From positions 117,101-181,100 of the forward strand of contig JAQGDQ010000464.1 of the NCBI GenBank assembly GCA_030141605.1: 64,000 bases of DNA, read 5' to 3'. A program made the translations under genes and the position numbers. Positions 8,136 through 64,000 of the stretch are shown piece by piece (within the stretch, counting starts at the first letter, position 1; each line of letters opens with the position of its first letter). The notes below the pieces were generated by a model. It made no database searches, was not told the origin of the DNA, and saw only the letters and a program-made list of their open reading frames with translations. The DNA is from Tubiluchus corallicola (taxonomy: Eukaryota > Animalia > Priapulida).

Positions 8136-9062
8136 GTGATAGCCACTCAACTCGTTTCACTTATGCTCGCTCTGCTTCCACATTCTTGTGGGATAGCCAC
8201 TCATCTCATTTCATTTATGCTCGCTCTGCTTCCACAGTCTTGTGGGATAGCCACTCAACTCATTTCACTTATGCTTGCTCTGCTTCCACAGTCTTGTGGG
8301 ATAGCCACTCAACTCATTTCATTTATGCTCGCTCTGCTTCCACAGTCTTGTGGGATAGCCACTCAACTCATTTCATTTATGCTCGCTCTGCTTCCACAAT
8401 CTTGTGGGATAGCCACTCAACTCGTTTCACTTATGCTTGCTCTGCTTCCACAGTCTTGTGGGATAGCCACTGAACTCATTTCATTTATGCTCGCTCTGCT
8501 TCCGCAGTCTTGTGGGATAGCCACTGAACTCATTTCATTTATGCTCGCTCTGCTTCCGCAGTCTTGTGGGATAGCCACTCAACTCATTTCATTTATGCTC
8601 GCTCTGCTTCCACAGTCTTGTGGGATAGCCACTCAACTCATTTCATTTATGCTCGCTCTGCTTCCACAGTCTTGTGGGATAGCCACTCAACTCATTTCAT
8701 TTATGCTTGCTCTGCTTCCACAGTCTTGTGGGATAGCCACTGAACTCATTTCATTTATGCTCGCTCTGCTTCCGCAGTCTTGTGGGATAGCCACTCAACT
8801 CGTTTCACTTATGCTTGCTCTGCTTCCGCAGTCTTGTGGGATAGCCACTCAACTCGTTTCACTTATGCTTGCTCTGCTTCTACGTTCTTGTGGGATAGCC
8901 ACTCAACTCATTTCATTTATGCTCGCTCTGCTTCCACAGTCTTGTGGGATAGCCACTCAACTCGTTTCACTTATGCTCGCTCTGCTTCTACGTTCTTGTG
9001 GGATAGCCACTGAACTCATTTCATTTATGTTTGCTCTGCTGCCACGTTCTTGTGGGATAGCC
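8136..9062. repeat. 51-bp minisatellite, ~18 copies
   Basis: Unit tgtgggatagccactcaactcatttcatttatgctcgctctgcttccacagtct; GATAGCC recurs from 8138 to 9056 at 51-bp spacing. Confidence 0.95.
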
Positions 9063-15364: not shown

Positions 15365-18300
15365 ATGATGAATGCAAAAGCAGCAGGTTTTGTGTTTTGC
15401 CTATTTTATTTTGCCGTTTTAGCAGCTAATGGTAAGTTTTCTTATTGCATAAATTCTTAGGTGTCAATTTATAATTATTACTGCGGTGGCTGAACTTCGG
15501 CTTGTTTTACGTTCAAACTTTCACTCACTTAAGGACACAGATATGCGGTCTGTATATTATTTCAACATCGCTTTAAAGTAAAACACCCCTATAAATCAAA
15601 ATATAACGACATTACCTGCATAAATTTCACAAATCCTACCTTTTGATTGGCTCAAATTTAAATACTTACCGATTTCACCTGTGCAAAGTCTACAAACATA
15701 AGTGCCATGTTCTGTTTCCTTGAGTTCAGTTTTTGCTGGAGTTTGAGCACCAAACTGGACTTATCTCCCAACCGTTTTGGTGTCAATGTGAGGGAGTGGT
15801 GAACCCTCAAGTGTAGATTCATTTTTACGTTTTATGCTTAGGCAGCTATTTCTTCTTTTCGGTTACAAAGATTCTTTTAAACATTAACATTTTAATTTTA
15901 CAAAATTACTAAGTTAGTCAAGATTTTGGTGGGGTCTCATGCCGCTCTTTCAATGCTGGTAAATGTGTCCTAGACGTTTGATTTACTAATCTCATTTTAG
16001 GATGTGGTTTTCTAACCGAGGCCTCTCGGCCACCGATAACCCTTGATCGAACCGTTCAGGGGTTATTGCAACCACTCTGTCGGCGAGAGCCCGATGGCAG
16101 AACAATATTTTACAAATATCAACAAATAATCCGAATACCCATATTATACACGTATATATAACATACAGTGTCGTCCAGAAAAAACGTCCCCATTATTAAC
16201 TCGTTACACTTCATCCTGGTACGCGCGTTTGCAAAAGAGACCCTCATCACCGTGATGCACGACTTCTCCTCTTTTCAAAGAGTTATAAATTTCCCTCAAA
16301 GATGCATGCAATTGGTTTTTCTGGCTGACCCTGTAATATTACTGGTGAGCAAATAAGCGGATGGTATCTTCTAGTGTTGATCTACGTAAAATAAAACTAC
16401 ATACAAACGCATATCACTTTAACAACATATTTAGGTAGAAATGCAACAATACATATTATTATAGCAAGGTAGATGTATCTTCACCGGTTCTATCCTGCTG
16501 TGATTGAGTGGTGGAAATCGGTGAAAACAATCATGCTGTACACGTGCTTAGTCAACACGAGAAGTGGCAGTACCGTTACTTGCCATTTCCTTGTGAACGG
16601 TAATACAAGATCAGATCAGACCATGTAGGTAATAACCATATCAATAGAACTAAGGCGCACCTCGCTATTATTTGCTTCTTTTTGTCAGCTGCCAATGTTA
16701 TCTCATTAACAGCTTACGCTTTATTAAAGGAAAACTGGACCCAATGTTAATCCATAGCTCAAAATCGTCTAACCTACAAAATATTGAAATAAAAATCTAA
16801 TTTTTTCAATAATGACCTGAAAGAATTATTTCTACGGAAGTTTAATTTCAAGTTCGCGCGGTAGTTTTTCGGGGCTGTAAGCTAATATCTAGTTATCAGA
16901 GACATTTTAGAATTTCTGTAGATGTTACAATATTTTGCCCTCTTCAAAATGAGATAACATTGAAAATAAAACAATCATCCTATTTTCCTTTAAAACAGAA
17001 AACATCAAAACAGTCAATTTATGCGCATTGTGTAGATTTAAGTTTGCATTCCAAGTACGTACTGTGATTTATTTCAATTTATATCATAAATTTTTCATTT
17101 TAGCTTTAGACGGTGGACATCAGGTAAAGCAGACAGATATTCTTTCTCACTCAGAAAGGCCTCAAAGAAGAACATCAGACAGAAACGTGAATGAATTGAT
17201 GAGTTCCTACGCATACCTCATGCCCCGACCAGCTTTACTAAAACAGAGACTGAAGGTTAGTACAAAACCATTCTTAGTAAGAAAACCTTACGCCACTAAT
17301 CATCAAATTAATAAACTGGTAAGTGAAAGATACACCAGGCGAAGATAATAACAAGAAAATCTTGAAACAAGTAATTACATAGTTTTTTCATTACTTTTAG
17401 GTGTCATAGTAGAAATTGCAGCAGCAGCAACAACAGCAACGACACATGATAATGAAGAAAGAGGCGAGACTGCTGCTGCTGTTCATTGCTTCTTGTTGTT
17501 GTCGTTGTTGTCGATCTTGCATTGTTGTCGTTGTGGCTGCTACTCCTGTCGTTGTTGTTGTAATCGTCGTCGTCATCGTCATCGTTAATTTTATTAACAC
17601 TATTCTTTGTTGTTTGATGTGCTTACAGTGTTCCAGGTCACTTCTTCATTTGACAAAAGACAAACATGGCGTTCATTCACGCCAATTTCTGTTTTTCTGC
17701 TATTTCAATTTCTACTGCATTAATCTATTGTACATTAACATATATACTCCTTTTAAAGTTGTAACGACAAAAAATCCCTTCCATTATATGTTTTCTGGCT
17801 GACTAAATGCTTCAGGCAGCAGAGCTTTCTGTCACAAACACTGAGTCCACTGATCATAATTCCTATAATATACCTGACTTGATCTGCTATGACAGTGACG
17901 CCAATAATTTGTTCGTCATTCATCAAAACTCAAGAAAATGTCGTCTTATTTTCTTATCAGTTATGTATTACAAATCTGAACTGTCAATTTTTGATTATTT
18001 TGCAGTTTTTTAATTCTCACTTTCATTCTCAGTTAGAAAACATGGCTTCTTATTTTCTGGACCACGCGACTGACGTTGCATCATCAACAGATACAACCGA
18101 AAAAGGCGTGGCGGACAACATTGCAATTTCCGAAGATGAATGGGGGGTGGTTAGGAAACCAGAATTCCTGAGTAACGATGAAGGTAGCCATCCACAGTCG
18201 GTGTGCCCATCCAAAAGTGACTGGATACAGTTACTCAATTCAACAGACATGAATGGTAATGATGTCATGGTACTACAGCCTCCAAATATTCGCCGCCAGC

Positions 18301-20044
18301 AATGGTTTTATGCCACGAGGTGTTTGGATGAAGCTGAGGGAGAGCCATGTTTAGGAGTTGACCACACAAGGTAAGCAATGTGCCATAAAATACGGTTAGC
18401 CTTCTCTAGCTCCAGCAGTGGATTGTTATCAATTTATCACAATGTAACAATCTGTGCTAGCAGTCGTTACTAATAAAATGAAAATAACTAGTGAGATTAT
18501 TAAGTGGAATCACTATTTTTGTCCCTACTTACAGTTGAGACATGCATTAAATATTGGGTTAGGGCCACAGTCTTCTAGACCACGATGTAGTGGTACCACG
18601 CCCTCATGCACGCCCACTACATGCTCACTTACGTCTTACGAAACTAATCTACTTCAAGAGGATATTTATCACGCCCGCGTGGGATTCACACCTCTAACTG
18701 ATGATTCTAATTTTTGTCTTCTCTGTTCTGACGTCAGCTTTGGTGATCACGATTGATGACGATAACGCTAAAGTGCTTCTCGGAGAATCGGCTGTCTTTA
18801 ACAATACTCAAAGATATATAAAATGAACAAAATGAACTTCTTTATTTGTGAAAGGCCATTGTCCGTCCTTGTATGAAAAAATATATTCATGGCACAGGTA
18901 AAAATGGTACAGGCAAAATGACACATAATGTTATAATGTTATTTCGTTGTAAATTATCTCTACAATAAAGCTAGAATGCGCTGAGCAGGAAAAGCGAAAA
19001 ATCCTGACACATGTTCGACTGATTTTTTTGATAGAAAAAATGTATGTAAAAGAAAGATAAACAAGCAAACATACAAAATATACCTATGTAAGTACTATAT
19101 AGACCACCAAGACCTTGCAAAATATTTGGTTCTTCAAATAGAATTTTAGTTAGTAATGCACGAACATTCCACATTGTGTTTGTCTACATTGATTTAACCA
19201 TTTGCAAATGGTAATAGACTGACAAATGTACAGATCTACATACTATCTCAGCTTATATACCTATAATCATGTGTAAGCAAAGGTTATAGACAGCGTTACA
19301 CAGTTTTCCAAGCGAAAATTTCTCTACATGAAATTTGTAACTAACTTGAAGCTGTTTGTCCTGGTTGAGATTATGAAAAAAAATTACCCTATCTTGTAGC
19401 CAACTCCTCCTCTTTCCAAATAGCTATAACACTCCCTCTGAGACCTCCACAGATATCATTTGTACGTTGTGTTTTGTCAAGTTTTGTGGCGAATAAATTC
19501 CCATTTTGGCAGTTTTCGCCTTTTTCTCTCTCCAGGAGTTTGCGTCGAAAACCTTTCTTGTTCCCGTCCCTCTTCTTCACAAAGTTTCGTGGAAAGTAGT
19601 TTTTCGCGTAATTGTCTTACAGCTATTTAATAAAAAAACCAAGCAAACAAACAGCGTTGAAGCATAACTCCCTTGGTAGAGGTAAAAATGACAAAATTAA
19701 TTACCACCCACTGTAACCCTAACCCCAAACTCGCATTTTAACAGTGTGCAAGCTTTTTCCATTTTTCATTTGTCCCCTTTTTTCTTGCGCATTTTACCGT
19801 ACCATTTTTCCTGTCATTTTTCCTGTGCCTTTTTTACCGTGCACTCTTCATATGAATTCATAAGTAACTCTCAAAGTCTCTTACTTGTTACAGGTATATG
19901 TCTAGATGTGAGACAGATACAGGCTTTGTGATGGCCTACGTAAAACAATATACCTCCAAACCCGACAAGAGATATATAAAGGTAGATACAGCTTGCAACT
20001 GTGGCATCTCTACACTGTCAATGGATACGTTCTTCACTTTTTAA
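15365..20044 (+). CDS. Neurotrophin-like secreted cystine-knot precursor (~235 aa); exons 15365-15431, 17104-17255, 18033-18370, 19894-20044
   Basis: All introns GT-AG with matching phases (1, 0, 2). Signal peptide MMNAKAAGFVFCLFYFAVLAANA. Mature domain SVCPSKSDW..TDMNGNDVMVL..QWFYATRC..PCLGVD..YMSRCETDTGFVMAY..RYIKVDTACNC parallels the NGF family (SVCDSxSxW, QYFxETKC, CRGID, IRIDTACVC); six cysteines. Confidence 0.9.
16166..16333. mobile_element. Tc1/mariner-type MITE in neurotrophin intron 1
   Basis: TA|CAGTGTCGTCCAGAAAAA ... TTTTTCTGGCTGACCCTG|TA imperfect TIRs; 168 bp. Confidence 0.65.
17418..17585. repeat. Mixed trinucleotide microsatellite (CAG/CAA/TTG/GTC)
   Basis: Visible low-complexity triplet runs in intron 2. 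Confidence 0.8.
18888..19843. mobile_element. Possible non-autonomous TIR element with ~15-bp subterminal repeats in neurotrophin intron 3
   Basis: Left ggcacaggtaaaaatggtacaggcaaaatgacac; right ttttaccgtaccatttttcctgtcattttcctgtgcc is the inverted equivalent. Confidence 0.5.
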
Positions 20045-20708: not shown

Positions 20709-21200
20709 AGTAAAATTTATATGTTATGTTTATGAGCTGAGTCGATGTTTATGAGCCGAGTCGTATAGTGGTAGTACTTGTTGGTGGATTATTGAGGAGG
20801 CCGCAGCCGTTTATTGACGTGAGGTGGTGACAAAGCTATAAGACCTGGATTGATGAGCGACTAACACATTTATTTCACAATAATATATTACATGGTAAAG
20901 TACATATCATAGCTCTGCCGAACCGCCCAAGATCTGTTCCTGCTTCCTCGAGATTCCCCCGTGATCTGATCTCCCATTCCACTTGGCTTCCTTCAGCTTT
21001 TTGGACTCACAGCGCATGCGTTATAATTGTTGCTAGTCTGACAATTCAGACGGGCAATGTCCATATATGGAACTCAGTCACATGACAGCCGCACCTAAAA
21101 TCATGGCTTCATTTCTACATATCTCTCATATCCCCTTCATAGAGTCGTTTCATTTCTGAACTGCTAATACTAATCATACAATTATCATCTTCTCTTTACT
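20709..21200 (-). repeat. 3' LTR of copy 1 (492 bp)
   Basis: AGTAAA...TTTACT inverted termini; near-identical to 37022-37469 apart from a 19-bp duplication and a 24-bp insert. Confidence 0.93.
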
Positions 21201-21210
21201 CCTCTCTTCC
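21201..21210 (-). promoter_or_regulatory. Polypurine tract
   Basis: Minus strand GGAAGAGAGG directly abuts the LTR start AGTAAAG; repeated at 37884-37893. Confidence 0.85.
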
Positions 21211-21827
21211 TAGAAGGAAGTTAGTTCCCTCGGGGCTGGCAGATTAGATAATTTTAATATTATATCATCTGTCTAAAATACATGACCAATATGTGATTTA
21301 AGATATCTGATTTTTAAAATATGTGAGTAAAATATCCAGTTAAAATATCTAAGTAAAATATCTGATTTTAAAATATCTAATTAAAATATCTAGGCAATCC
21401 GAATGTCCTTGTGAGTATGGAGGCACGAGGCTTGCTCGTCCTTATACTAAACTATACATTTACAACATTGATAACAGTAATATGGACATGTGAGGTATAC
21501 CGGTTAAATCTAGTATAGCAAGCAATTTTCCTTATCATGTTATCATCCTTAGTAAGTATAACTAGGCTAATGAGATATACAAATATTATTAAACACACAG
21601 TTGATACATGCGTGTAACATTTATCAAAGTTTCTAATATATATATGCAAACTATATAAGTAAGCGCACAATATACGAGTGGATAGGTCCAATCATGCAGT
21701 ATACTATCCTAATCGATTTTCTTTATCGTATCAACTATGCTATTGAGATATATAGTTATAGGAGTAATTATATGAGTTCAACTGATATCATTTAAAATAC
21801 CATTCCGAATACAAGTCAAGTCAGGAT

Positions 21828-22708
21828 ATAAATCATAAATTTACGTAAATCAAGGCAAAATAGATATATATATATATATGTCATCAGCTATAAGTCATCA
21901 GCTTGTAAATCATAAATTTACGTAGATCAAGGCAAAATAGATATATATATATGTCATCAGCTATAAGTCATCAGCTGACAACCTGAATCATCAATCATTA
22001 TCAAACGATATCAATGACAACCTGAGTCGTCACCTGAGTCGTCAATCACCGTCATAAAATATAAGTGACGATCTGAATCATTAGTCACCGTCATAAAATA
22101 TAAGTGACAATCTGCAGGTCATCAATCGCGGTCATCAAAAGTATAAGTGACAACCTGCATCAATAAATCATCCGTCATCCATCACAGTCATAAAAGTATA
22201 AATGACAATCTGACATCGATGAATCATCAATCATTATACAATATAAATACACACGTCGTGCAAAATCAACCTTATACTATCCAACATATCATTTCAAAAT
22301 ACAGGAACACAACATTATTGGACGCATTTCAAAATATAGGTATACAACGTTATTCATCATTTCATAATATACATACACAATCATTCATTTGACATCCTAT
22401 ATAAGTACACACGGTTGTTCAATATTTCATCATTTCATCCATAATATAAGTACACAGTGTCATTCAATATCTTTCATTTGACATCGCATATAAATACACA
22501 CGGTTATTCAATATTATTCCTTTAGCATCATATTATTCATTGAACACACAATGTTATTCATTTATTCATTGAATCTCCATGTTAAAATTGTATCAAAATG
22601 ATCAAAATGTTGAACGTTATTCTTAAAGTTCAAAATATAAGTATACAGTAATGTTGTTCATTTTTCATAAAGTTCAAAATATAAGTATACAGTAATGTTA
22701 TTCATTTT
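21828..22708. repeat. Tandem/degenerate repeat-rich 3' non-coding region of the element
   Basis: Duplicated aaatcataaatttacgta..gtcatcagctataagtcatcagct blocks, ataagtgacaatctg repeats, and a 43-bp duplication just after the receptor stop. Confidence 0.7.
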
Positions 22709-23575
22709 TCATTCATTCTCTTCCTCTGTCTGAAAACAAGTGTTTTGATCCAAGTTGAGCTGAACAGACTTCAGTCGTGTCGCAAAAGCGATTACTGCTT
22801 GATATAAAGCCTGGAAGTTGCTTAAAGCCCCCATTTGCGAGGTGAATCTAGAAGGCCAGTGAAGTGCTATTTCACAATTAAATCGTTCTATCCACCGAGA
22901 GTGAAAATGAGCCACTCGGTCTGGACGTTGTAAATTAAGGCAAGTTGAGTCATAGAGTAAGATGTTTGTTAAGATTTCCAACTCGTCTTGCGTTGGTCTA
23001 ACTAGCATAATCGCCTGTGCAGTTCTATAAAGTTGTTGTGTAAACTCATCGAAATCACTGAGTTGATGTTGCGGCACTAATTCTTGGGCAAGCGACACGA
23101 AATTAATAAGTGTATTTAGCCAAATTAGAATTATACTTGGAGCGCCAGATTTTAGTAGAATTTTCTGGTCTTCGACAGGTAATGTTTGTAATTCGGGTTG
23201 TTGGCATGCCTTCTGAATTGTGATTCTTACGGCGACAGGTAGAAGTTGGTTTGCCATCCGGTTAATAGATTTGACCCGATAATTAAGTTTAGCTTTGAGA
23301 CGATTCTGACGAGATTTAGATGACCTCCCAAAACGAGGTGAAGTTGGCTGTAAACCAACGGCTATACATTTGTTAAATCTACAAAGTTGACAATGACGTC
23401 TGGTGTCTGGGGTAATACGACAATTTCCAACACAGCCACGTTTAGAACATACATTTTTAACGTGCTGCTTTCTGTAAAAAAAATAGCGGCACGCGTTACA
23501 CGTTAATTTGCCATAGTGTTTAATGAAAGCTGCTGCAGAACAGACTAGGCAGCTTTGTATAACCGTGTCTGACAT
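22709..23575 (-). CDS. Intronless nuclear hormone receptor (C4 zinc-finger DBD + partial LBD), 288 aa, inside the LTR element
   Basis: CLVC-X13-CNAC-RYFFYR..C..C-X9-CQLCRFNKC; HYG motif; RFGR C-terminal extension; LBD signature PELQTLPVEDQKILLKSG. ATG at 23575. Confidence 0.92.
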   Translation of the reverse strand: MSDTVIQSCLVCSAAAFIKHYGKLTCNACRYFFYRKQHVKNVCSKRGCVGNCRITPDTRRHCQLCRFNKCIAVGLQPTSPRFGRSSKSRQNRLKAKLNYRVKSINRMANQLLPVAVRITIQKACQQPELQTLPVEDQKILLKSGAPSIILIWLNTLINFVSLAQELVPQHQLSDFDEFTQQLYRTAQAIMLVRPTQDELEILTNILLYDSTCLNLQRPDRVAHFHSRWIERFNCEIALHWPSRFTSQMGALSNFQALYQAVIAFATRLKSVQLNLDQNTCFQTEEENE

Positions 23576-23669: not shown

Positions 23670-24029
23670 TTAAATTATATCGTCGACACAAATATGTGGT
23701 TCTCCCATTAAGTGTTTAAAATAGTTCTGACAGCGCATAAAGTCCTGACAATTTATAAAGTCCTGACAATTTATAGTAGGTACAGTTGCTTGATTCACAT
23801 TTTGCGAAACACGATGTTTAATCATCCTCATTGTTAAATATCGATCAAAGTACGGTTTAAAGTTAATTACACTCAACGGATATCTTCTAAAATATTTCGT
23901 ATGTAGTAATTCTAAGATAATAAACTGAGCTCCTTTATAATTTACGAGGTAGTAGGTTTTCCTGAAAGGTGGTTTTTGATATGTGTAAGTTGCTAATACT
24001 CGAATATTTAGTTTCATATTTAGTTTCAT
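23670..24029 (-). CDS. Accessory ORF of unknown function (119 aa); second copy at 39254-39613
   Basis: ATG-initiated, co-oriented and tightly packed upstream of the receptor; open in both copies; no recognisable domain. Confidence 0.5.
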   Translation of the reverse strand: MKLNMKLNIRVLATYTYQKPPFRKTYYLVNYKGAQFIILELLHTKYFRRYPLSVINFKPYFDRYLTMRMIKHRVSQNVNQATVPTINCQDFINCQDFMRCQNYFKHLMGEPHICVDDII

Positions 24030-24236
24030 TGCACTGGTAAATGAAACGTAGAACGAAGTTATTTTTAATGCTGTTCACCGGAACAAAGTTTTCTTTGATG
24101 CTGTTCACCATATATCAACTAGGGCTCTGGTTTACACAATTTCACAAAATAGTTGTTCTGTAGTTTACGTAGACTAGTTCTAGAGCGATTAGCAAACATT
24201 AGCAAAGACAGCTGCAAAGTTTGTGTACTACTATGA

Positions 24237-24443
24237 TCACTGGCTTGGCTTGGCTGCGTCGCTCGGTGTGTACGATGGATTTCCGTGCTGACTTCCGGCG
24301 GTCGATAGCTGTCTTGTTGAGATGAAGCCGGCTGGCTTCTTGCACGTGCTAGGCAGGGTTTTAAGGTTAAGGTAAAAAAGGAAAGAATGATATATGGAAA
24401 ATAGGTTAAGGTATCCAATCATACTCATTATACAATTACTCAT
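24237..24443 (-). CDS. Possible small accessory ORF (68 aa; overlapping 99-aa TTG-start frame 24119-24418 has a signal-like N-terminus)
   Basis: Open in both copies, but which frame (if any) is coding is unclear. Confidence 0.3.
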   Translation of the reverse strand: MSNCIMSMIGYLNLFSIYHSFLFYLNLKTLPSTCKKPAGFISTRQLSTAGSQHGNPSYTPSDAAKPSQ

Positions 24444-24706: not shown

Positions 24707-25361
24707 NNNNNNNNNNNNNNNNNNNNNNNNNNNNNNNNNNNNNNNNNNNNNNNNNNNNNNNNNNNNNNNNNNNNNNNNNNNNNNNNNNNNNNNNNNNNNN
24801 NNNNNNNNNNNNNNNNNNNNNNNNNNNNNNNNNNNNNNNNNNNNNNNNNNNNNNNNNNNNNNNNNNNNNNNNNNNNNNNNNNNNNNNNNNNNNNNNNNNN
24901 NNNNNNNNNNNNNNNNNNNNNNNNNNNNNNNNNNNNNNNNNNNNNNNNNNNNNNNNNNNNNNNNNNNNNNNNNNNNNNNNNNNNNNNNNNNNNNNNNNNN
25001 NNNNNNNNNNNNNNNNNNNNNNNNNNNNNNNNNNNNNNNNNNNNNNNNNNNNNNNNNNNNNNNNNNNNNNNNNNNNNNNNNNNNNNNNNNNNNNNNNNNN
25101 NNNNNNNNNNNNNNNNNNNNNNNNNNNNNNNNNNNNNNNNNNNNNNNNNNNNNNNNNNNNNNNNNNNNNNNNNNNNNNNNNNNNNNNNNNNNNNNNNNNN
25201 NNNNNNNNNNNNNNNNNNNNNNNNNNNNNNNNNNNNNNNNNNNNNNNNNNNNNNNNNNNNNNNNNNNNNNNNNNNNNNNNNNNNNNNNNNNNNNNNNNNN
25301 NNNNNNNNNNNNNNNNNNNNNNNNNNNNNNNNNNNNNNNNNNNNNNNNNNNNNNNNNNNNN
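24707..25361. other. Assembly gap (N run)
   Basis: Flanks match copy 2 at 40291 and 40946, whose spacing is essentially the gap length. Confidence 0.95.
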
Positions 25362-27440
25362 GTGTCATAGGCGGAGTATTGGGTTTGTTAGAATGGGTAC
25401 CGCGGGGTGGTTTAGCCTTGGTAGAAGTTGGTTTGGTGTTTATAAGACGGGGGCAACATGCTGTCTTAATTTTCGTACGACAAGTCACATAAATTATAAT
25501 AAAGATTATAATAAGTGCTATAAATAAGTATGTTGTCAATGATGCACCCTTATGATTGGAAAAGTCAACCGGTTTGGTTTTGAATAATTCATCAGTGTGG
25601 TCCAAAAACTTCTGTCGTTTTAATAAGAGATTTTGACTACCTTTAAGAGAAAAGTCAAGTGGTTCATCCTCTGTCATTCGTGACGGCAGAGCTTGCAGTG
25701 TTTGAAGTGTTCCTATCGTAAAATTACTTCCTAATAAATCAACGTTCCAAGTACTTAAATTAAGTGCCGTATCTAAGATTGTTTGGATGTCCGTTTGAGT
25801 TAAAGTAAGGTCTGAATGATTCTTAAAATATATTGGTAAATTTGCATATTTAGAAGATAGGCCACACCCTGATTCTAACTGCAGGATCATCGGGTTCTTG
25901 ATGGTGAGGGGGGTGCCAATCTTATGAGCCTGGCGGGGTACGTAACAAGATTTTATGGCTTGAATTTCAAAACTCGGGCTAATATAATAAGTATTCTCAG
26001 TTAGAGGTATAATAACTGGTCCAAGTTTATTAATAATTCTTGCTCGTTGATCACAAAATAAATCTATTTTAATAGTGTCCTTGAAAAACAATGCCGCTGT
26101 ACATGATTCTATTCTATCTGCAGGAAAAATTGGCGTTGGTGCTAACTTACAGATACGTTTTGGGCTTTGAATACAAGCAAAGGCTTCATCTTTGGCTGGG
26201 AAAAAATATAGTGACTGCTCAATATTCGTAGCAATATACTGATGATCAATTTGGTTATATAGATAAACAGGTTTATTAATATTGGTTGATGTCCGACGGA
26301 CTGGGATCGATATTGCTTCAAAAATTTGATAGATGTGATTGACATGATATAAATCTAATGTTGTTAGGATAGCAAACCCTCCGGGAATTTGAATAGGTAA
26401 TGCCGACATTGTTTCGTAATAATAGAATAATTGATTATTTATATCGGCTGGAAATATTAGGCTCTGTGGTAGCTGGTCCTCAATTTGTTTAAGAGACTTT
26501 TGAAGGTGTATAGGGGTTATTAAAGTTGGGGGTAATTTATTAAGAATTAGTTGATGTAAACCTTGGGATAACGAATTCAATTCTTGATCAATGATTTCTA
26601 AGCTATAGATAAAGTGATCAAACAGCAAATTTGTTTGCAAGAATGTAAACAATTTATGTTGAGTTTTAGTCAAGTCATCAGTAAACTGTTTTGACAGTTT
26701 GTTAATGTAATGTCGAGTTTGAACTGATGCGTTCACTAAGTCATAAATTAACTCTGTATTTCTAGCAGAGCGAATTAGCGAGCTATTGATAAGGGCTAGG
26801 TTATTTTCTAAAATATCTTGCGTGTTTTGTTGCGTATTAAAGATACTCGTAATCTGATCTTGAAGATTTCGAAGATCTTCTTCACTCGCGGTTCCGATTA
26901 AAAATTTGAATGCCTTTCCTAGATTCGGAAAAATGCTTCGTTTGACGACGTGAGATTCATGGGCAGACGAGGCTATTAAATTCTTAATGGAATTTAAACG
27001 AAATTGTTGATTTCTGATTCTATTTTTAATAGCAGTTTTAAAGGCTTTAATCACTGTGACAGGTTTTTTAATTAATCTTAATTGTTGAATTTCGGAAAGC
27101 GTTCTAGTGAGAAATTCTTGAATGTGGTCCAACTGTATCGGCGCAATAAGTAGCCATCTTGCATTAGAAACTGGAGTATTTAATTTCTGTTTAAATATAA
27201 CCCCTGGGCCTGTTTTAAAGGGAGCTGGATTTGGGAATGATTGTAAGGAATTAGAATGTACAGATTTAAGAATATTGCCAATATTAGGATTTTGTATAAA
27301 AGGTTTGTAGTACTGGTCCTGGAAAAAAAATTCAAAAGGAATATTATTCAGGTTGTCCTATACAGATCATTTCTATGACTCTAAATTAGTAAGGTTAGAA
27401 TAAATTTAAGATAAACTTACGTATTTCCTGAAAGTTCCAT
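25362..27440 (-). CDS. env: env (class I F-type fusion glycoprotein), copy 1; exon 27421-27440 plus exon from 27318; 1-nt deletion near 27255; C-terminus lies in the gap
   Basis: Furin-like VVKR|SIFPNLGKAFKFLIGTA fusion peptide, heptad region, Cys-rich region and TM YLFIALIIIFIIIYVTC. Copy 1 reads ttagaatgtac versus ttagagatgtac in copy 2. Confidence 0.88.
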
Positions 27441-28141: not shown

Positions 28142-28696
28142 ATGGAATGTGAAGTACCGAGAGATGCCTACTTATTGGCAGTAGAGCTCGAAATTACGAG
28201 CGGGAACTTTTACGATGTTTTGGATGAACGGGCACAGTTGCATGACCAACTTAGTCGTGCTCTAAAAATGACGTACTTGCCTGGCACATGCGAGCTTTTC
28301 TGCGGCAAGTCCATCATTGATGGAGTAAGTAATGGTTTTTTTTTTGTTTTGTTTTTTTTTTTTGAGGTAAGGACTATTATGTTAAAATCACTAGATTGCT
28401 AATTCTGCAGTTAAAAGAAAATTTGTCTCGAGGACTTTTAATAAAGATTTATATTCCTTTTACAGGAAGAACTAGTGGTGCTAAAACTGAGCAGTATTCA
28501 TGGGATGCCAGTTATGGCAAATTTACTGACCAAATACGCGCCCGGCCGGGTCCGCTTTATCAACCGAGAGAATTTTTGTATCTGCACCGCGGCACATAAC
28601 ATAATAACAATATGGGACCTGGCACGGGTGATGAGAGTATATAAACGCAACTGGGAGGAGGGAACGGAAGAAAGGTGGTTAGCGGTGAAGTGCTAA
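28142..28696 (+). CDS. Antisense two-exon gene of unknown function (137 aa); exons 28142-28324 and 28466-28696
   Basis: AAAATGG start, GGA|gtaagt donor, ttccttttacag|GAA acceptor, phase 0-0, exons GC-richer than the intron. MECEVPRDAYLLAVELEITSGNFYDVLDERAQLHDQLSRALKMTYLPGTCELFCGKSIIDG-EELVVLKLSSIHGMPVMANLLTKYAPGRVRFINRENFCICTAAH... Confidence 0.65.
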
Positions 28697-30469: not shown

Positions 30470-33400
30470 TTATTGTTTGCAAAATTTTCGGCGTAATGTT
30501 TTAAAGATGCCTGGTTTTTGCAACTTAATTAAATTAATTCTGGCACGCTTACCAGGCGTGTCGGCGTCTGATGAGCGTTTTATAGAACGGTTTGCGAGGG
30601 GGGGAATTAAGTTGTCTACTGGCATTGCATAATCTGTTTCGGTTTGAATTAAATTCTCCTCTTCCATCGGATCTATACGTTCTAAAGTTGGCAAAGAATG
30701 AAGTGTAGAATTTGACGAACTGGGTGAAATGTTAGGTTGAGGTTGGGGTTCATTTTCATAGAAATCCAAGTTCGGGGGCGGGGTTGCGATGGGGGTTTGG
30801 TCAGGTTGGATCTCATTTATTAGGTTATTTGAATCAGTGTCTGAAAGAGTTTCCGGGACGTAATGTAATGTGGATTTTCGTTTTGAAGTTCGCTTGGAAT
30901 GCGACGACGTTCCTGTTGGTAGCAGCCATTGATTTCCTTGCAAATTTGCCTTTCGTAACCGGTTTGGGTGCACTATTTTAAACTTGCCTGTGTTATTATG
31001 GACAATTCTAAGACGGGATTCATCAATTTTATTAACTATTACATAATATGGGGCCCACGGTCGACATAGTTTATGTGATTCAGCAGGGTCTAAATTACCT
31101 TTACGTAAGAAAACTGGATCACCAATTTTGAAAAGAGGTATATGCGTATTTTTATCATAGCGTTTTTTGTGGGCTAGACGATTTTTATGCATCAGTTGTC
31201 GGGTTTGCAGAAAGGCTTCATGCAAACGATTTAGATCCAGTCTAATTGGATCAGATCCGTAATATTTAGATCTAAGTTGAAGGATATTATCGAGTGGCAA
31301 ATCGCAGTGGCGATTATATATTAAAAAAAATGGACTGTACCCCGTTATTGAATTTGGAGTTGTTCTAAGGGCGAATAATACATGCGGCAGATATTTAATC
31401 CAATCTGTGGACTTTTGTTGACAAACATATGCTAATTGTTGGATAATAGTGCGATTAGCGCGTTCAACTTGGCCTTGTGAATTCGAGTGGTACGGTGTTC
31501 CTAATACTTGAACAACCCTGAATTCTTTTAGTAAAGCTTTTAATAAAGCATTATTGAATTCTGTTCCCTGATCACTGAAAAAGGTTTTACTTGCTCCGTG
31601 ACGAGAGAAATATTCTGTAAGGATGACATTAGCAACTGAGTTAGCTGATTTATCAATTAAAGGAAAGGCCTCTATCCAGCTACTTAATTGATCTATTAAA
31701 ACTAGTAAATATTTATAACCAGATTCTGTCTGGGGTAAAATTAAGATATCCAAATATACATTTTCAAAGGGTTTACTGGCTAATTCTGTGATACCTAAAG
31801 GTTTACGATGCGGTCTCATACGCCGTGTTTGACAGTTCAAACACTGATCTACATGTTTCTTAATTTGTACAAACATGCCGGGCCAGTAATATCGTTTCTT
31901 CAGACGCTCATATGTTCTTTTTACTGAAGAATGTCCAGCAAATTCGTCATGAAAGCCTCTAATTAAAATACTTGTTAATTTCGCTGGAATGGCTAACCGT
32001 AAATTTTCCTGTTCTAAATTAATGGAGTCATTTTCAACTTTATACAATAATCCCTGCTCATCAATGTAGAAATTTTCTGCATGTTTTGTTTGAATATCAG
32101 TTTCTGTAGGTGAGGTTAAGGCATGAATAATTGGTGCTAATTTAGGATCTGATAATTGCCATTGCTGTACTGTCGTTAGATCTAAAGGTAATCCATCGAA
32201 TTCGTCCAGGTCATGTTCAGTTTCACCTTGTTCTAATTGAGTGGCTGGGTTGTCCGATGAGGAGGTTTCTTGTGCTGGTAATGGAATTTGAGTTGGAGCG
32301 TTTTCATTGCCAGCTGATTCGACCGTTGGTCTGTTTAACAATGGGTCTTCACCTGTCCAAATATTTTCTTCTAAAATGTTACCCTCTATAGGTAGTACCT
32401 TTTTAATTATTGTCTGATCTGAGTAGTTTTCTAATTCAGTTTGACCTGACATTTGTTGGCTGATTTGGGCAATCATCTCTGTACTTTTAATACCTTTACT
32501 GCGCTCTGAAGTAGATTTCTGATCTACTAAGTATTTATATTTCTCTGCTAATCTTTCAGGCGAATTATATTGTAGAAACTGTTGTTGAAAATCCCTAAAG
32601 GATATTGGGAGCGTTCCTATAAAATCTGGACATGCAGGTAGTCGACTTAACGCGTCTGCAACTGTGTTTTCTGAACCTTTTTGGTAATAAATATTAATAT
32701 TATACTGTAATAGCTCAACTACCCATCGAGACAGTAATTGATTCATTAATTTAGCACCTGTAAACAAATAAATTAACGGTGCATGGTCCGTATAAACATC
32801 GATTTTTGGCGCGTTATATAGATATGTTTTAAATTTTCTAAAGCTAGCTACGATGGCGTATGCTTCCTTTTGAAATGTAGGCCATAATCTTTGTGAGCTG
32901 TTTAGTGTTTCCGACATGTACGCGATCACTCCGATATTTCCAGCTGCATCTTCTTGCGAAAGAACAGCGCCTATGCCAAAGTTCGAACTATCGGTATGGA
33001 GAATATAACCTGTATTAGTCTCCGGATATTTCAAGATTGGTGCTTCAGTTAAAACTGTTTTCAGTTTGTCAAAAGCCTCTTGTTGTAAATGTGTCCATTT
33101 AAACGAATTTTCTTTCCTTAATAACATTAATAATGGTTCAGCTATTATCGCAAAATTTTTGACGAATTTGCGATAATAAGTGGCTAGACCTAAAAAAGTT
33201 CTTAGCTTTTTAATATCTGTAGGTGGTGAAACATTCTTAATAGCTAACACCTTTGCCGGATCTGTGGCAATGCCTTGTTCAGACAAAACGTGGCCTAAAT
33301 ATTTAATAGATTTTTGTAAGAAAAAACATTTCCTGGGTCGGCATTTTAAATTTGCTTTCCGTAATCTCAAAAATAAATCTTCTAAATCGGAAAAATGGGT

Positions 33401-33965
33401 TTCAATATCCGGACTGCAACAGACAAGGTCGTCTAGATAAGCAATTAAGCGTCTCCTACCCGTGGGTGTTATTAAGTCACGTGAAAGGCGGTCTACTAAT
33501 CTGGAAAATGTAGCTGGTGCATTCTTCAAACCAAAGGGCATTTTTGTAAATTGGAATAAGCCATACGGGCTGACAAAGCTTGTAAAAGGTTGACTGTCGG
33601 GTTCAACTGGTATCTGAAAATATGCATTTGTCATATCTAGAGAGGAGAATATACTAGCACCTTTTAATTCTTTAAATAATGTTTCGACGTTCGGTTGTGG
33701 GTAGGGGTCAGGGAGTGTACGTGCATTGATTTGTCTCAAATCTACACATAATCTCTTCCCTCCATCTTTTTTTGGAACTAACAGAATGGGACTTGCATAA
33801 CTAGAATTCTCAGCTGGGACTATGACTTTTGCCTTTAACATAGTGTCTATAGCCTGTTTAACCACTGATTCCAAATTTATAGGTATAGGGTACGGTTTAG
33901 CGTGATAAGGTGTATAATCTGTCATTCTTATTTTAAATTCAATTTCCGACGTACCGGGGCGTCTA
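30470..33965 (-). CDS. pol: pol: reverse transcriptase, RNase H, integrase
   Basis: RLCVDLRQIN, MPFGLKNAPATF, YLDD; TDSSNFGIGAVL, TDHAPL, NTVADALSR; H-X5-H..CLNC; LDIL..SDQGTEF..GQVERANRT. Frame is open ~40 nt upstream of the ATG at 33925. Confidence 0.97.
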
Positions 33966-35279
33966 TGGGATCTTCAGCAAAACAATCTGCATATTTAAGA
34001 AGCAATTTAGTGAGTCTTTCCTTAAGTACGGGATCTGTAATGTTATCTAATTTTAATTCTTTTAGTAAGCTTTCCGATGACATCATACGAACGAATTGTT
34101 GTTTAATATGCTTTTGTAGCCGTTTCCGTCTTCGTTTATTTGAAGTAGGTTTAGCTTCTATATTTTCATCAATGGAATGTATTATATTTGGAGTATTATA
34201 CAAGATGGCTTCAGTCTTGTAAGGTGTCTGTTGTAATCTGTAATCTTGTGGTGGTCCGTATTTCGTCACATGGTCCAGTGTCTGAACGTGAAGTCTACGA
34301 ACATATTTTGGCAAGGAATTTCCCTTATCCGTTGTATTTATTTTAGGGAAAATTTCATTCTGAAGTTGCGAAGCTATTTGTTGTATCGAGTTCATAACTT
34401 CCGTGCATTTAGCAATATTTGAAACTTGATACATAACTGTTGGGTCTTGTTCAACTGCAAGACTTAAAATGTCATTCCGAGATACGATTACATCCTTTTC
34501 ACCGTCATTGTATAAGGGTACATAAACTTGTTTCTTATACATATTCACAATACTGGGAACTATGTCACATGTGGTTTCTTTATAAATAGGTAATACGTTC
34601 GCTTTAAGGAGTTCTAAAGTATGAACGCATTCATCATTCTTATGAAAATTTCCTGTGATATACGCCTTGCCAAGTGCACAAGATTTTGGGGGAATTAATA
34701 AAGCAGTGGCGGCTTTGACCAAAAAGATGCGTTTTTCGCTCGGGGGAGCTAATTTAAGTACCTCTTGATTTATGACTAAAATTCCGTTGGCAATATCTAT
34801 TGCTGCTTGGGTGTTTTTGAAAAAGTTATAACCTAAAATTACAGGTTTTGAAAGTTGATCTACGATATAAAACAAATTTTCCAATTTCTGTTTTCCTATG
34901 GTAACAGTTAAAATGCATTTACCTAATATTTTTAACGTGCTTTTTGAAGCAGTATTTAAAACAAAATTATCTTCAGGGGACGTAAGGGTTTTTTGTACTT
35001 CTGTTGGGAGTTTATGGAAAGTGGTGCTATCTAAAACACTAACTTCTGCTCCTGTATCTAAGATAGCTGTACAAGGATAATCATGAACTTTAATATTACA
35101 AAATGGAGCCGTCGTTTCTATGGATGCAATAGAAATATATTTTGTTTCTGAAACAGTTTGTTGAAATTTAGACTTGTCGGGTGCATTAAAAGAAGAATTG
35201 GAATAATTCGGTCTAGGATCATGCGACCACTCTGACGACCGATAATTTTCATGAATGGTCGCTTTTAGTTTGCCGTTCT
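33928..35279 (-). CDS. pro: pro: aspartic protease plus spacer domain (-1 frame relative to gag)
   Basis: AILDTGAEVSVLD at ~35030-35070 and VILGYNFF; frame is open from the gag 3' end to TAA at 33928. Confidence 0.9.
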
Positions 35280-36593
35280 CCTATTAAAATTGCCGGATTG
35301 TTTTTCCCTATTAAACCTAGGAATAAATGGTCTATTATTCTGAAATCTGAAATTCGGGGCGTTTTCTCTAGGCATCCATGACGCGCGTTGATTGAAGTTG
35401 TTATTTCTATTCGTAGCGCGCGGTTGAAACCTGAAACCTGTGTTCGGTCGTTCGTTGTAGAACTGTCTATTATTAAAGTTATTAAAATTACGTTGAAATG
35501 GAGCGTTAGGTCGATTGGTTGTCCGAAATTGTCGGTTATTATTATTATTAAAACCCGTTGGTACAAATTGACGTCCTTTACCGAATCTTGCTGGTTGATT
35601 TTGTGTTGGTTTTGCCAAAGTAGCGACAGTTTTATTAAGAGAACATACCGATTCTTGTACGTTGCTTAAAACTTGTCCCTGTTTAAGTAATGAATCTGCA
35701 AACAGCTGCAATGTATGGGGAGTCATGTCTGAGGGGTCTTCATGAAGTTCTTGTGAAATTAGATCAACTTCCATAGGTTCTGAATTATCTGGAAAACACG
35801 ATCTAAGATATTGGCACATCTCCACGGGGGCTCCCCTGTTAGCGGCTTCTGTGATTGCCAAAGTTAGAGTTCGGGGAGGCTCTCTAAGTAAGTATTGACG
35901 TGCCTGGTCCCCTCGTATACCCAGTGTAAATAATTGTACCAAAAATGATTGAAAGGCTGGGTCTACTATTTCATCTTCTGACGTTTTTGCTATTCTTGCT
36001 AATTTGAGTATCCTGTCGCCAAAAGCCTGTATGGTCTCCCCCTTCTGTTGCCTAGCTCGAGTTAATCCAATGAAAGCCTTATTAATTTCTAGTCGGTCCG
36101 CGTATAGGTCTCTTAGGGCGTTTCGTAATTCCTGTGCTGTTCTCGTCTCGAGATTTGGGTATTTACTCACAAAGTTTGCGGCTGCCCCTGTAATAGTGCC
36201 CAAAATTAAATGCTTGTAGGCGGTGTCCCTTGATGTCAATAATGTAGGAGTTAAGTTTAGAGACTGCTCTATATTATCAATCCAATCTCTATATTTGAGA
36301 GTGCCGGGTTCTCCTGAAAATTTCGGTAAGTGTTGAATTTGGTGGATTAATGTTTGTTGTACTTTAGTGTCTTTTAGATGAGTGCCCAATTCACATAAAA
36401 ATTGGGTCTGATCACTAGCCCGTTTCAAATCACCTATTCTTTCTCCTTGTTTTAAAATCTGAGCAGCTTGGGTTTGTAAGATTTTATCACTATTCTCGCA
36501 TCTTTGACTCAACTCATGAAATTGATTTGCTAAAGCATTATAGGTATCAATAGACACATGCTGAGCTTCAGGTGCTGGAGATTTAGTCGCCAT
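35265..36593 (-). CDS. gag: gag (442 aa)
   Basis: N-terminal coiled coil, LPKFSGE, RQQKGETIQAFGDRI and F..GIR capsid motifs, EPMEVD motif, N/R/F-rich tail; no CCHC knuckle. Confidence 0.92.
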   Translation of the reverse strand: MATKSPAPEAQHVSIDTYNALANQFHELSQRCENSDKILQTQAAQILKQGERIGDLKRASDQTQFLCELGTHLKDTKVQQTLIHQIQHLPKFSGEPGTLKYRDWIDNIEQSLNLTPTLLTSRDTAYKHLILGTITGAAANFVSKYPNLETRTAQELRNALRDLYADRLEINKAFIGLTRARQQKGETIQAFGDRILKLARIAKTSEDEIVDPAFQSFLVQLFTLGIRGDQARQYLLREPPRTLTLAITEAANRGAPVEMCQYLRSCFPDNSEPMEVDLISQELHEDPSDMTPHTLQLFADSLLKQGQVLSNVQESVCSLNKTVATLAKPTQNQPARFGKGRQFVPTGFNNNNNRQFRTTNRPNAPFQRNFNNFNNRQFYNERPNTGFRFQPRATNRNNNFNQRASWMPRENAPNFRFQNNRPFIPRFNREKQSGNFNRRTAN

Positions 36594-37004: not shown

Positions 37005-37024
37005 AACTGGTCACAAGTACCAGT
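37005..37024 (-). promoter_or_regulatory. Primer binding site
   Basis: Minus strand ...TTTAC-TGGTACTTGTGACCAG; the TGG shares its T with the LTR end. Loosely like tRNA-His PBSs, but tRNA identity is not established. Confidence 0.7.
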
Positions 37025-37469
37025 AAAATTTATAGGTTATGTTTATGAGCTGAGTCGTATAGTGGTAGTACTTGTTGGTGGATTATTGAGGAGGCCGCAG
37101 CCGTTTATTGACGTGAGGTGGTGACAAAGCTATAAGACCTGGATTGATGAGCGACTAACACATTTATTTCACAATAATATATTACATGGTAAAGTACATA
37201 TCATAGCTCTGCCGAACCGCCCAAGATCTGTTCCTGCTTCCTCGAGATTCCCCCGTGATCTGATCTCCCATTCCACTTGGCTTCCTTCAGCTTTTTGGAC
37301 TCACAGCGCATGCGTTATAATTGTTGCTGTCCATATATGGAATTCAGTCACATGACAGCCGCACCTAAAATCATGGCTTCATTTCTACATATCTCTCATA
37401 TCCCCTTCATAGAGTCGTTTCATTTCTGAACTGCTAATACTAATCATACAATTATCATCTTCTCTTTAC
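37022..37469 (-). repeat. 5' LTR of copy 1
   Basis: Direct repeat of 20709-21200, adjacent to the PBS. Confidence 0.93.
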
Positions 37470-37883
37470 GTATAGTGGTAGTACTTGTTGGTGGATTATT
37501 GAGGAGGCCGCAGCCGTTTATTGACGTGAGGTGGTGACAAAGCTATAAGACCTGGATTGATGAGCGACTAACACATTTATTTCACAATAATATATTACAT
37601 GGTAAAGTACATATCATAGCTCTGCCGAACCGCCCAAGATCTGTTCCTGCTTCCTCGAGATTCCCCCGTGATCTGATCTCCCATTCCACTTGGCTTCCTT
37701 CAGCTTTTTGGACTCACAGCGCATGCGTTATAATTGTTGCTGTCCATATATGGAATTCAGTCACATGACAGCCGCACCTAAAATCATGGCTTCATTTCTA
37801 CATATCTCTCATATCCCCTTCATAGAGTCGTTTCATTTCTGAACTGCTAATACTAATCATACAATTATCATCTTCTCTTTACT
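37470..37883 (-). repeat. 3' LTR of copy 2, lacking ~35 bp and fused directly to the preceding LTR
   Basis: Junction ...ctttac|gtatagtggt...; followed by the PPT. Confidence 0.9.
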
Positions 37884-39140: not shown

Positions 39141-39215
39141 TTCATTCATTCTCTTCCTCTGTCTGAAAACAAGTGTTTTGATCCAAATTGAGCTGAACAG
39201 ACTAGGCAGCTTTGT
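39141..39215 (-). pseudogene. Deletion remnant of the nuclear receptor ORF
   Basis: Only the last ~20 codons are joined via GAACAGACT to a few N-terminal bases. Confidence 0.9.
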
Positions 39216-40284: not shown

Positions 40285-40756
40285 TTATATGGGAGCGAAT
40301 TTATGAAAGAACTCGTTTTCCAATAAAGGGCGTTTCACAAGAACAAGAAGATCTGGTGGAAACGAAAATTCTGTCTGTGTCTGTTTAGTACAAACAGTGG
40401 GTGACAGTTTAGTTGTAGTAAAAACAATTTTTTCGCTGGGTTGACAAGTCAAGTCAGTCTGTGTGTCTTTGGAAGCAGCTGTTAACGAGTCTGGGATTGG
40501 TGGAAGTGGTGATTTTAAAAAGTGATATATTTCCTGGGGAGATAACGGAGTGTCTGGTGCGAGGGAAAAGGTTAAAGGCATAATTTGTTCAGTATCCTCA
40601 TAGGTGGAGTTGGATTGGGGCGTTTGGGGTGTCTCAGGTGTTGAAAGGTTACGAATCAAGTTATAATTGACTTCGTAGGTTTCGTTAAGTTCTTGTAGAA
40701 ATTTATCTATGCTGTCATCTATTTTCGAAAGGTGATCTTCGGCCTCGTGGGTAAAA
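40285..40756 (-). CDS. Accessory Pro/Thr/acidic ORF directly downstream of env (~156 codons, probably spliced)
   Basis: Strong acceptor tttatttcttttattctatag| ~30 nt after the env stop; frame FTHEAEDHLSKIDDSIDKFLQELNETYEVNYNLIRNLSTPETPQ... has no upstream ATG. Confidence 0.6.
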
Positions 40757-40784
40757 CTATAGAATAAAAGAAATAAACGAAGTT

Positions 40785-42903: not shown

Positions 42904-43007
42904 CTGGAAAAAAAATTCAAAAGGAATATTATTCAGGTTGTCCTATACAGATCGTTTCTATGACTCTAAATTAGTAAGGTTAGAATAAATTTAAGATAAA
43001 CTTACGT

Positions 43008-44682: not shown

Positions 44683-45001
44683 GACTAACACATTTATTTC
44701 ACAATAATATATTACATGGTAAAGTACATATCATAGCTCTGCCGAACCGCCCAAGATCTGTTCCTGCTTCCTCGAGATTCCCCCGTGATCTGATCTCCCA
44801 TTCCACTTGGCTTCCTTCAGCTTTTTGGACTCACAGCGCATGCGTTATAATTGTTGCTGTCCATATATGGAATTCAGTCACATGACAGCCGCACCTAAAA
44901 TCATGGCTTCATTTCTACATATCTCTCATATCCCCTTCATAGAGTCGTTTCATTACTGAACTGCTAATACTTAATCATACAATTATCATCTTCTCTTTAC
45001 T
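44673..45001 (-). repeat. Partial LTR
   Basis: Matches the LTR from ATTGATGAGC to the terminal TTTACT. Confidence 0.92.
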
Positions 45002-63000: not shown

Positions 63001-64000
63001 ACTAAGAGTACTCTCTAGCATCTAGACTGGTGAAGTTCATTTCCTGAATCTTGGGATACCCTAACTCAGGACGGAATCATAGGTAATGTTAGATAAATGG
63101 GAGAATATTATTCATATTATCTTGTTAGAATGGGCATCCACATCAAATTGTATTAATTTCTATTAAGATATCTAGAGAACTGTACATCTAGCCAAACTCA
63201 TTTAGGAGCAGTCCCTGCCAGCCTAAAACATCTACTTCAAGTCTGAAGGCATTTACGTTTGATCGCTGTAATCTGTTGAGATCTACAGAAATCCTGAAAC
63301 TCCTAATAAGAATTCACTTAGAAAATTCTGAAATATTTGACACGTAGATTCAATTCTTCTCATCTATTGAGATATATAGTCAAAACTACAACATCTAACC
63401 AGAACTCATTTAGAGCAGTCCCAAACATCTACAAAGGCAATGTTACGCATCTGAATAGGGAAATACACAGAAAGCCTCAATTGGCTTGTTAGAAGACACG
63501 TACATCTAAGATATTGGTATATTCTGAAACATCTAGTCAGAACGTACTTAGAGTAATCTCTAGCATCTAGACTGGTGAAGTTTATTTCGAATCTAGATAC
63601 CTAACCAGACGAACTGTACAGGCAATGTTATACAATGGGAGAACACATCACACATCTCGTTAGAAGGCATCCACATCAAATTGTATTAATTTATTAAGAT
63701 ATCTAGATGAACTGCAGCATCTAGTCAAAACTCATTTAGAGCAGTCCCCGCCAGCCTAAAACATCTACTTCAAGTCTGAAGGCATTTACGTTTGATCGCT
63801 GTAATCTGTTGAGATCTACAGAAATCCTGAAACTCCTAATAAGAATTCACTTAGAAAATTCTGAAATATTTGACACGTAGATTCAATTCTTCTCATCTAT
63901 TGAGATATATAGTCAAAACTACAACATCTAACCAGAACTCATTTAGAGCAGTCCCAAACATCTACAAACAACCCGAAACATCTAGTCAGAACTCACATAG
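45002..64000. repeat. Complex satellite array (monomers ~445-635 bp, shared core, 2550-bp higher-order repeat)
   Basis: Core gtctgaaggcatttacgtttgatcgc(a/t)gtaatctgttgagatc recurs ~35 times; extends past the window end; N gap at 49234-49798. Confidence 0.97.

Follow-up and report, generated by a model that had tools for sequence, protein, structure and literature searches.

Does an env-bearing LTR retroelement in the priapulid Tubiluchus corallicola carry a nuclear receptor gene of its own, and what would it use such a gene for? The window, i.e. the whole stretch of 64,000 nucleotides analysed here, holds a 288 aa ORF that the original prediction described as a nuclear receptor (NR) gene carried by the element, long captured and adapted, and not as flanking host DNA. 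We compared this claim with the architecture of the locus, the predicted fold and relatives of the protein, and contigs of public sequencing runs.

The element and the place of the receptor gene

The window contains two adjacent copies of a Ty3/Gypsy element. The features of copy 1 are:

37469 to 20709, minus strand: copy 1 of the element, 16.8 kb including a 655-N gap
37022 to 37469, minus strand: 5' LTR, its first base missing at the junction with copy 2
37007 to 37022, minus strand: primer-binding site, assigned from sequence, its TGG start overlapping the last LTR base
35265 to 36593, minus strand: gag-position ORF, 442 aa
30470 to 35280, minus strand: pol, encoding protease, RT, RNase H and integrase in Ty3/Gypsy order, with a frameshift between protease and RT
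28142 to 28696, plus strand: candidate accessory gene, antisense, with two exons (28142-28324 and 28466-28696) and about 137 codons, arranged head-to-head with env
25362 to 27440, minus strand: F-type env, frameshifted near its 5' end, family called from the env of copy 2
27440 to 27421, minus strand: ATG mini-exon of env, 20 nt, followed by a predicted GT-AG intron of 102 nt (27420 to 27319, minus strand)
24707 to 25361, no strand: assembly gap of 655 N, covering the end of env and ORF X of copy 1
24240 to 24350, minus strand: candidate internal promoter upstream of the NR gene, inferred from a GAAGCC inverted pair, AAGCCA repeats, and what we take to be an E-box and an ETS-like CCGGAAGT
22709 to 23575, minus strand: nuclear receptor ORF, 288 aa, uninterrupted and intronless
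21212 to 22708, minus strand: 3' untranslated region, 1.5 kb, with short tandem repeats
21201 to 21211, minus strand: polypurine tract, assigned from sequence, directly before the 3' LTR
20709 to 21200, minus strand: 3' LTR, 492 bp, termini AGTAAA...TTTACT, inverted

In brief, the order in the element is 5' LTR, primer-binding site, gag, pol, a 3 kb spacer, env, ORF X, a 1.1 kb spacer, the NR gene, the 1.5 kb UTR, polypurine tract and 3' LTR. The stretch between env and the NR gene thus comprises about 1.1 kb of non-coding DNA, the 655-N gap and a further 179-codon ORF, ORF X, that is seen in copy 2. The ORF map and the LTR alignment agree with the claim that the NR gene points the same way as gag, pol and env, with env on one side of it and the polypurine tract and 3' LTR on the other. 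Within this interval, an ORF at 23670-24074 was rejected as a gene, having no family match.

The PR-RT-RH-IN order, the paired LTRs, the primer-binding site and the polypurine tract are those of Ty3/Gypsy elements (Metaviridae), and the closest RT-RH matches show 36-45% identity. The 442 aa gag-position ORF gave no Pfam gag match. The two LTRs of copy 1 have 2 mismatches in 448 aligned columns, plus 44 gap columns, and copy 1 is therefore young. We did not find a target-site duplication of copy 1; its outer flanks are unlike, and none can be found because copy 2 abuts the 5' LTR. The CpG observed/expected ratio in the element is 0.97, i.e. there is no depletion, and there were no Rfam matches within 20000-46000.

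The gene after pol appears to be an F-type, errantivirus-like env, each line of evidence being weak alone: the env of copy 2 matches Baculo_F over residues 96-639 (E 7.9e-5, 21.9 bits, under the cut-off of 24.1), env matches a fusion protein in PDB (E 0.0015), and there is one transmembrane helix. Splicing of the candidate antisense gene is predicted from GT-AG sites in matching phase, and both listed exon 1 variants are synonymous. This gene has no family match, and a search of the ESM Atlas with exon 1 gave no usable match.

The features of copy 2 are:

37470 to 37883, minus strand: 3' LTR, lacking about 35 nt at its end and directly adjoining the 5' LTR of copy 1
about 39142 to 39215, minus strand: NR remnant, both gene ends around two deletions
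40285 to 40824, minus strand: ORF X, 179 codons from stop to stop, directly behind env, Pro/Thr/Gln-rich
40785 to 43009, minus strand: env, an open frame with a signal-like N-terminus and a C-terminal transmembrane helix, its ATG mini-exon lost at a rearrangement
43008 to 45001, no strand: rearranged 5' part, with an inverted 1.67 kb pol fragment (43008-44682) and the first 330 nt of an LTR (44673-45001)

ORF X (40285 to 40824) has no family match; a pyrimidine-rich AG is found at its start. At 37022-37883 two head-to-tail LTRs share 414 identical nt, which is either a tandem dimer that lost a little sequence at the junction or a product of misassembly.

As claimed, a remnant of the NR gene sits at the same place in copy 2. 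It consists of the last approximately 20 codons and 12 nt from codons 6-10, the two parts meeting at a 9-nt microhomology. The first deletion removed 776 nt at this microhomology and the second, of 72 nt, covers the start codon. Since copy 2 keeps both ends of the gene around the deletion, the gene was already present in the ancestor of both copies. It should be noted that copy 2 is an adjacent tandem neighbour, 95-99.6% identical to copy 1, and for this reason it tells little about the age of the NR gene. We rejected it as independent evidence of conservation, as it is not a separate family.

The element pair is located at the edge of a satellite array (45100-64000) of approximately 33 units of 445-635 nt with higher-order repeats. 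At 17889-18374 on the plus strand lies an exon that matches the NGF family (E 6.2e-8) and belongs to a neurotrophin-like host gene; it ends at a GT donor inside the domain, 2.3 kb from the 3' LTR. This intron-split gene and the undepleted CpG of the element point to an invertebrate animal as host. An array of 17 copies of a 54-bp unit at 8138-9062, with a 333-codon open frame, is probably a minisatellite.

Identity, remodelling and relatives of the receptor

The 288 aa ORF belongs to the nuclear receptor superfamily, with a two-finger C4 DNA-binding domain (DBD) as well as a helical ligand-binding domain (LBD) fold. In brief, the C4 domain spans approximately residues 8-76 and is followed by a GRIP-box-like PRFGR, a reduced ligand-binding fold at approximately 103-270 and an acidic tail. 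ORF analysis upheld the uninterrupted, intronless frame, and a Pfam scan gave zf-C4 at 54.1 bits (cut-off 21.1, E 2.3e-14). The nine cysteines of the DBD are invariant in a 42-row alignment and all zinc ligands are kept. The claimed LBD helix 3-5 signature is weak in Pfam, Hormone_recep reaching 15.4 bits over residues 119-153, under its cut-off of 23.5; the fold itself is upheld by a profile alignment, in which NR aligns with RXR and HNF4 along helices 3-10, and by Foldseek. A phmmer search matched 88 PDB sequences, and the best 60 of the 88 are all nuclear receptors.

A model from the 42-row alignment has a mean pLDDT of 86.9. Its top PDB matches in Foldseek are full-length PPAR/RXR, GR, HNF4 and Nurr1, and it superposes on the ERR-gamma DBD with an rmsd of 1.6 over 75 columns. 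As the 42-row alignment was itself built from receptors, a model from two rows is the less biased check of the fold; with a pLDDT of 54 it is poor on the DBD, and its C-terminal half has the LBDs of FXR, RXR and LXR as top Foldseek matches. Searching a viral structure library with the NR model gave one match at E<=0.001 among 500 counted matches, Q64895 of avian erythroblastosis virus (E 2.4e-8), the sole significant viral structural match.

The receptor is heavily remodelled. Helix numbers and residue roles follow general convention for nuclear receptors; those of helix 12 and of the helix-3 lysine are taken from 10.1101/2020.05.05.079277. The P-box reads CNACRYFF where canonical receptors have CEGCKGFF, so that N-A-R-Y stands in place of E-G-K-G and the EGxxG pattern is absent; likewise, FFRR of canonical receptors is FFYR. 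The hinge and helices 1-2 are absent, and relative to the aligned receptors the protein is shorter by a median of approximately 125 residues. The DBD extension of the model passes straight into helix 3, with no beta-hairpin. The model ends in one long helix (247-287) and the acidic tail, without a separate helix 12, the last block having a pLDDT of 58. The region of the helix 9-10/11 dimer surface is retained and is modelled with high confidence. In the alignment the position of the helix-3 clamp lysine is occupied by Cys. This lysine also serves corepressor binding (10.1101/2020.05.05.079277). As the clamp lysine aligns to Cys, neither activation nor repression can be assigned to NR.

That the canonical P-box, the AF-2 helix and the helix-3 clamp lysine are lost speaks against ordinary hormone sensing, and likewise against simple competition at host AGGTCA elements. 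We infer that NR is a ligand-independent DNA-binding regulator with a new site.

Among 1.84 billion representative proteins none matched NR below E 1e-30. The best 150 matches have 25-47% identity and are mostly DBD-only stretches. A word-indexed homologue search gave no homologue among 421 candidates, whereas a two-row profile search retained 7 of 1570: P0139 and six DBD-only matches, five of them named NR1I3. P0139 is a 316 aa receptor on a 2046-bp contig, colinear with NR over nearly its whole length (24% identity in 306 columns, pairwise E 2e-23). It shares the reduced architecture, with an altered P-box (CTPCRTFF) and no helix 12. Scans of viral contigs (with NR, P0139, the profile, env and RT) and of metagenome contigs (with NR and the profile) gave no relatives, both scans detecting close relatives only. 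The ESM Atlas gave generic receptor clusters only.

The comparison with subfamilies NR1-NR6 was run as a quick tree of 53 rows, all of them proteins that have a single DBD followed by at least 170 residues, chosen from 153 candidates; the 52 other rows are search hits of NR itself and not a balanced reference set. NR joins P0139 (SH-aLRT 94) on a branch of 2.42 with a long-branch warning. Among these 53 rows, no supported NR1-NR6 subfamily holds NR. The PRFGR extension resembles that of the PPAR/Rev-erb/E78/ROR group, which hints at an NR1 donor. The GC3 of 0.34 and the A-rich make-up resemble those seen in gag, pol and env; such a composition is in line with long residence in the element.

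Cargo status and selection

Contigs of public sequencing runs were compared with the window, and four of the six listed runs, from two studies, gave matches. Runs X1-X3 represent one sample, possibly the window's own source, and X4 comes from another study. Two short pieces of run X5 match the window. The RNA run X6 gave no contig matching the window, which has no bearing on expression.

NR contigs cross into both flanks in X1 (records 4 and 6) and X2 (record 13). Contig depth, which does not equal copy count, is 46-54 for NR and 50-65 for gag, pol and env in X1, and 1078 and 805-1041, respectively, in X2. Pieces of NR diverged by approximately 10-13% are present in X1, X2 and X4 (24 differences in 249, 35 in 279, 32 in 243 and 21 in 204). 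Some of the diverged contigs run on into the upstream spacer (X1 record 5, X2 records 11 and 12) and into the 3' UTR (X4 record 18). Loose contig ends at the outer LTR boundary reveal additional insertion sites.

These contigs bear on whether a host NR fragment came into this copy alone, by a one-off insertion or through an assembly artefact. The N gaps, and the tandem junction of 100% identical LTR pieces, mean that the local arrangement may be misassembled. The contigs of X1 and X2 that cross NR into both flanks count against such an origin, and X4, from another study, has diverged NR in element context, which contradicts an ORF confined to this copy. We regard a one-off origin or an artefact as highly implausible. 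That NR is cargo of the element rather than flanking host DNA is well supported.

The 40 best-supported of 291 difference rows include 18 differences in NR, of which 12 are synonymous, all at third positions, and 6 non-synonymous. Among these rows NR has more synonymous differences than the 22-31% expected (p 6e-5 to 2e-3), with a rough dN/dS of 0.14-0.22. This value is an indication and not an estimate, because it derives from the best 40 of 291 rows, run-shared variants are favoured and sites are linked; the diverged variants behind it are not independent lineages. For comparison, the synonymous fractions among the best 40 of 291 rows are 10/15 in pol, 2/3 in env and 0/1 in gag. Purifying selection on NR is indicated from this small sample, and we consider selection across diverged element copies likely.

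An NR-deleted form with the same deletion joint as copy 2 was found in X2 and X4. Its depth is 309.5 in X2, compared with 1078 for NR contigs, and 15 in X4, at or above the NR-bearing variant contigs there (5.5-11.9). As this form is present in both runs, the NR gene is not needed in cis. Frequent inactivation across relatives, which the original prediction had named as speaking against a maintained gene, is thus partly seen, in that an NR-deleted derivative occurs in runs of two studies. As a separate observation, X4 contigs of pol on 31812-35036 are approximately 170 deep and those of env and NR 5-50, and other LTR-bearing junctions are present too, hinting at abundant internally deleted derivatives in the X4 sample.

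The deleted derivative in two studies would also fit a passenger, i.e. a recent retrocopy of a fast-evolving, lineage-specific host receptor that is now being lost, with the synonymous bias stemming from host paralogues or recombination. Divergent P-boxes are moreover common among invertebrate receptor expansions. We consider this unlikely: the diverged variants continue into the spacer and UTR of the element and not into introns, the composition of NR matches that of the element's own genes, and an 867-nt frame with all zinc ligands has been kept while gag-pol-env copies gather breaks. The deletion junction, the diverged variants with synonymous bias, the lack of a close database relative and the pol-like composition instead support a gene that is cargo, long captured and remodelled.

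Proposed function and known systems

Our best reading, held with as much doubt as confidence, is that NR works as an accessory transcription factor, independent of ligand, on the promoters of the element itself. We suggest that an ancestor of the element captured the spliced mRNA of a host receptor, probably of NR1 type with a GRIP box. The captured receptor would then have lost helices 1-2, the beta-hairpin and the AF-2 helix, making hormone-gated coactivator binding unlikely, and its base-contacting residues would have changed; with N-A-R-Y for E-G-K-G in the P-box it likely reads a new DNA site. NR may be expressed from an internal promoter or from a spliced RNA; an AG lies directly before its ATG, and promoter-like motifs lie 0.7 kb upstream. 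It would bind the LTR and internal promoters in trans and set when and where gag-pol and env are made, by analogy with Tas, Tax or rv-cyclin in complex retroviruses. If the product acts in trans, copies that have lost NR could spread alongside intact ones.

In a search for candidate sites, the LTR held canonical half-sites at about the expected number (1 seen, 0.96 expected), and the spacers are likewise not enriched. TGACA repeats were rejected as an element-specific site, being explained by tandem duplication and near host density. Across the LTR and the non-coding interior of the element, GAAGCC is present 7 times where 1.2 would be expected, and it ranks second after a C run in an unbiased 6-mer scan of non-coding regions (z 5.8, compared with maxima of 3.4-5.5 in 20 simulated sets). 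Two of these occurrences lie in the LTR, two make up the inverted pair upstream of NR, two are in the pol-env spacer and one is in the leader; in each case the next base is a purine. This lead was arrived at post hoc, and the motif could instead be bound by a host factor. An GCGCATGCG motif, presumably NRF1-like, lies approximately 200 nt upstream of the env mini-exon and is also present in the LTR. Together with the mini-exon it points to an internal promoter for env, which may be bidirectional.

In its most extended and tentative form, our reading is of a complex invertebrate Ty3/Gypsy endogenous retrovirus whose anciently captured NR has a private site (candidate GAAGCC[AG]) through which the LTR, env and accessory promoters would be coordinated, P0139 possibly marking a second such element in another animal and thus a clade of compact viral receptors.

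Avian erythroblastosis virus, which carries v-ErbA, is helper-dependent. Like v-ErbA, NR is a nuclear receptor on an LTR retroelement, and the virus of v-ErbA gave its sole significant viral structural match. Unlike v-ErbA, which is a Gag fusion with an identifiable donor, NR is a separate ORF 11.7 kb downstream of gag in an element with a full gag-pol-env set, is distant from all known receptors and seems to be kept in copies that have diverged. v-ErbA is a Gag-fused thyroid hormone receptor that binds DNA and not hormone and represses host genes (PMC2194726).

An accessory gene maintained for action on host genes, as in v-ErbA, is the main rival to action on the element's own promoters. NR would then bind host promoters or sequester an RXR-type partner, and would in this way shift differentiation, hormone response or silencing pathways where the element replicates. 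The evidence for cargo and selection is the same for both readings. In favour of action on host genes, the helix 9-10/11 dimer surface region is retained in a high-confidence part of the model, the AF-2 helix is missing as in constitutive repressors, and rv-cyclin acts on viral and host promoters (PMC3185748). On the other hand, the P-box and neighbouring base contacts are non-canonical, which makes competition at AGGTCA unlikely, and the helix-3 lysine is lost. We regard action on host genes as possible but doubtful.

Accessory genes of complex retroviruses such as WDSV, foamy virus (Tas) and HTLV (Tax) lie between env and the 3' LTR. NR, too, is a separate gene in this position. Like the rv-cyclin of WDSV, NR has the look of a host regulator that has strongly diverged, and an accessory gene encodes it. 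Rv-cyclin (orf a) shares <20% identity with host cyclins and is a modulator of the viral promoter (PMC3185748). By contrast, rv-cyclin, Tas and Tax come from vertebrate Retroviridae and none of them is a nuclear receptor, and regulation is shown there and inferred here. Among host receptors, NR resembles Rev-erb/E75 (NR1D) in the missing AF-2 helix 12 (for Rev-erb, 10.1101/2020.05.05.079277) and the RFGR extension after the DBD. Rev-erb, however, keeps a canonical P-box and the helix-3 lysine, and the tree does not place NR in NR1D.

Ty3/Gypsy elements with F-type env are widespread in metazoans and are what Chary and Hayashi call 'errantiviruses', using the word in a wide sense (PMC13524379). 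The element described here shares with them the LTR-gag-pol-env order, the F-type env and recent multicopy expansion in an animal genome. It differs in its 16.8 kb length, in the 3 kb between pol and env that hold a candidate antisense gene, and in a further pair of sense ORFs behind env, of which NR is one. The screen in PMC13524379 collected gag, pol and env only; 'hormone', 'accessory' and 'zinc finger' do not occur in its main text, nor 'receptor', 'hormone' or 'zf-C4' in its 7 supplements. Invertebrate LTR elements with captured extra ORFs are also known from bdelloids, where enzyme ORFs were captured as ORF3 (PMC5408684), and from the Tor elements of Oikopleura, where env of Tor3b/4b has an internal promoter (PMC4402516). 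Unlike NR, the captured ORFs described there are enzymes or fusogens, not transcription factors. We found no Gypsy element with a nuclear receptor in the full-text literature, a search with most subscription journals and Repbase outside its scope.

The usual view of env-bearing Gypsy elements is of simple elements with three genes, which rely on transcription factors of the host. If a Gypsy element does keep a nuclear receptor of its own, complex-retrovirus-style regulation would have arisen separately in Metaviridae, and NR would, v-ErbA aside, be the first selectively maintained viral nuclear receptor found in the literature searched. NR may also serve as a natural minimal receptor with a rewired P-box for studying the rules of DNA recognition, and the element that bears it would be a possible route by which intronless, divergent receptors enter animal genomes.
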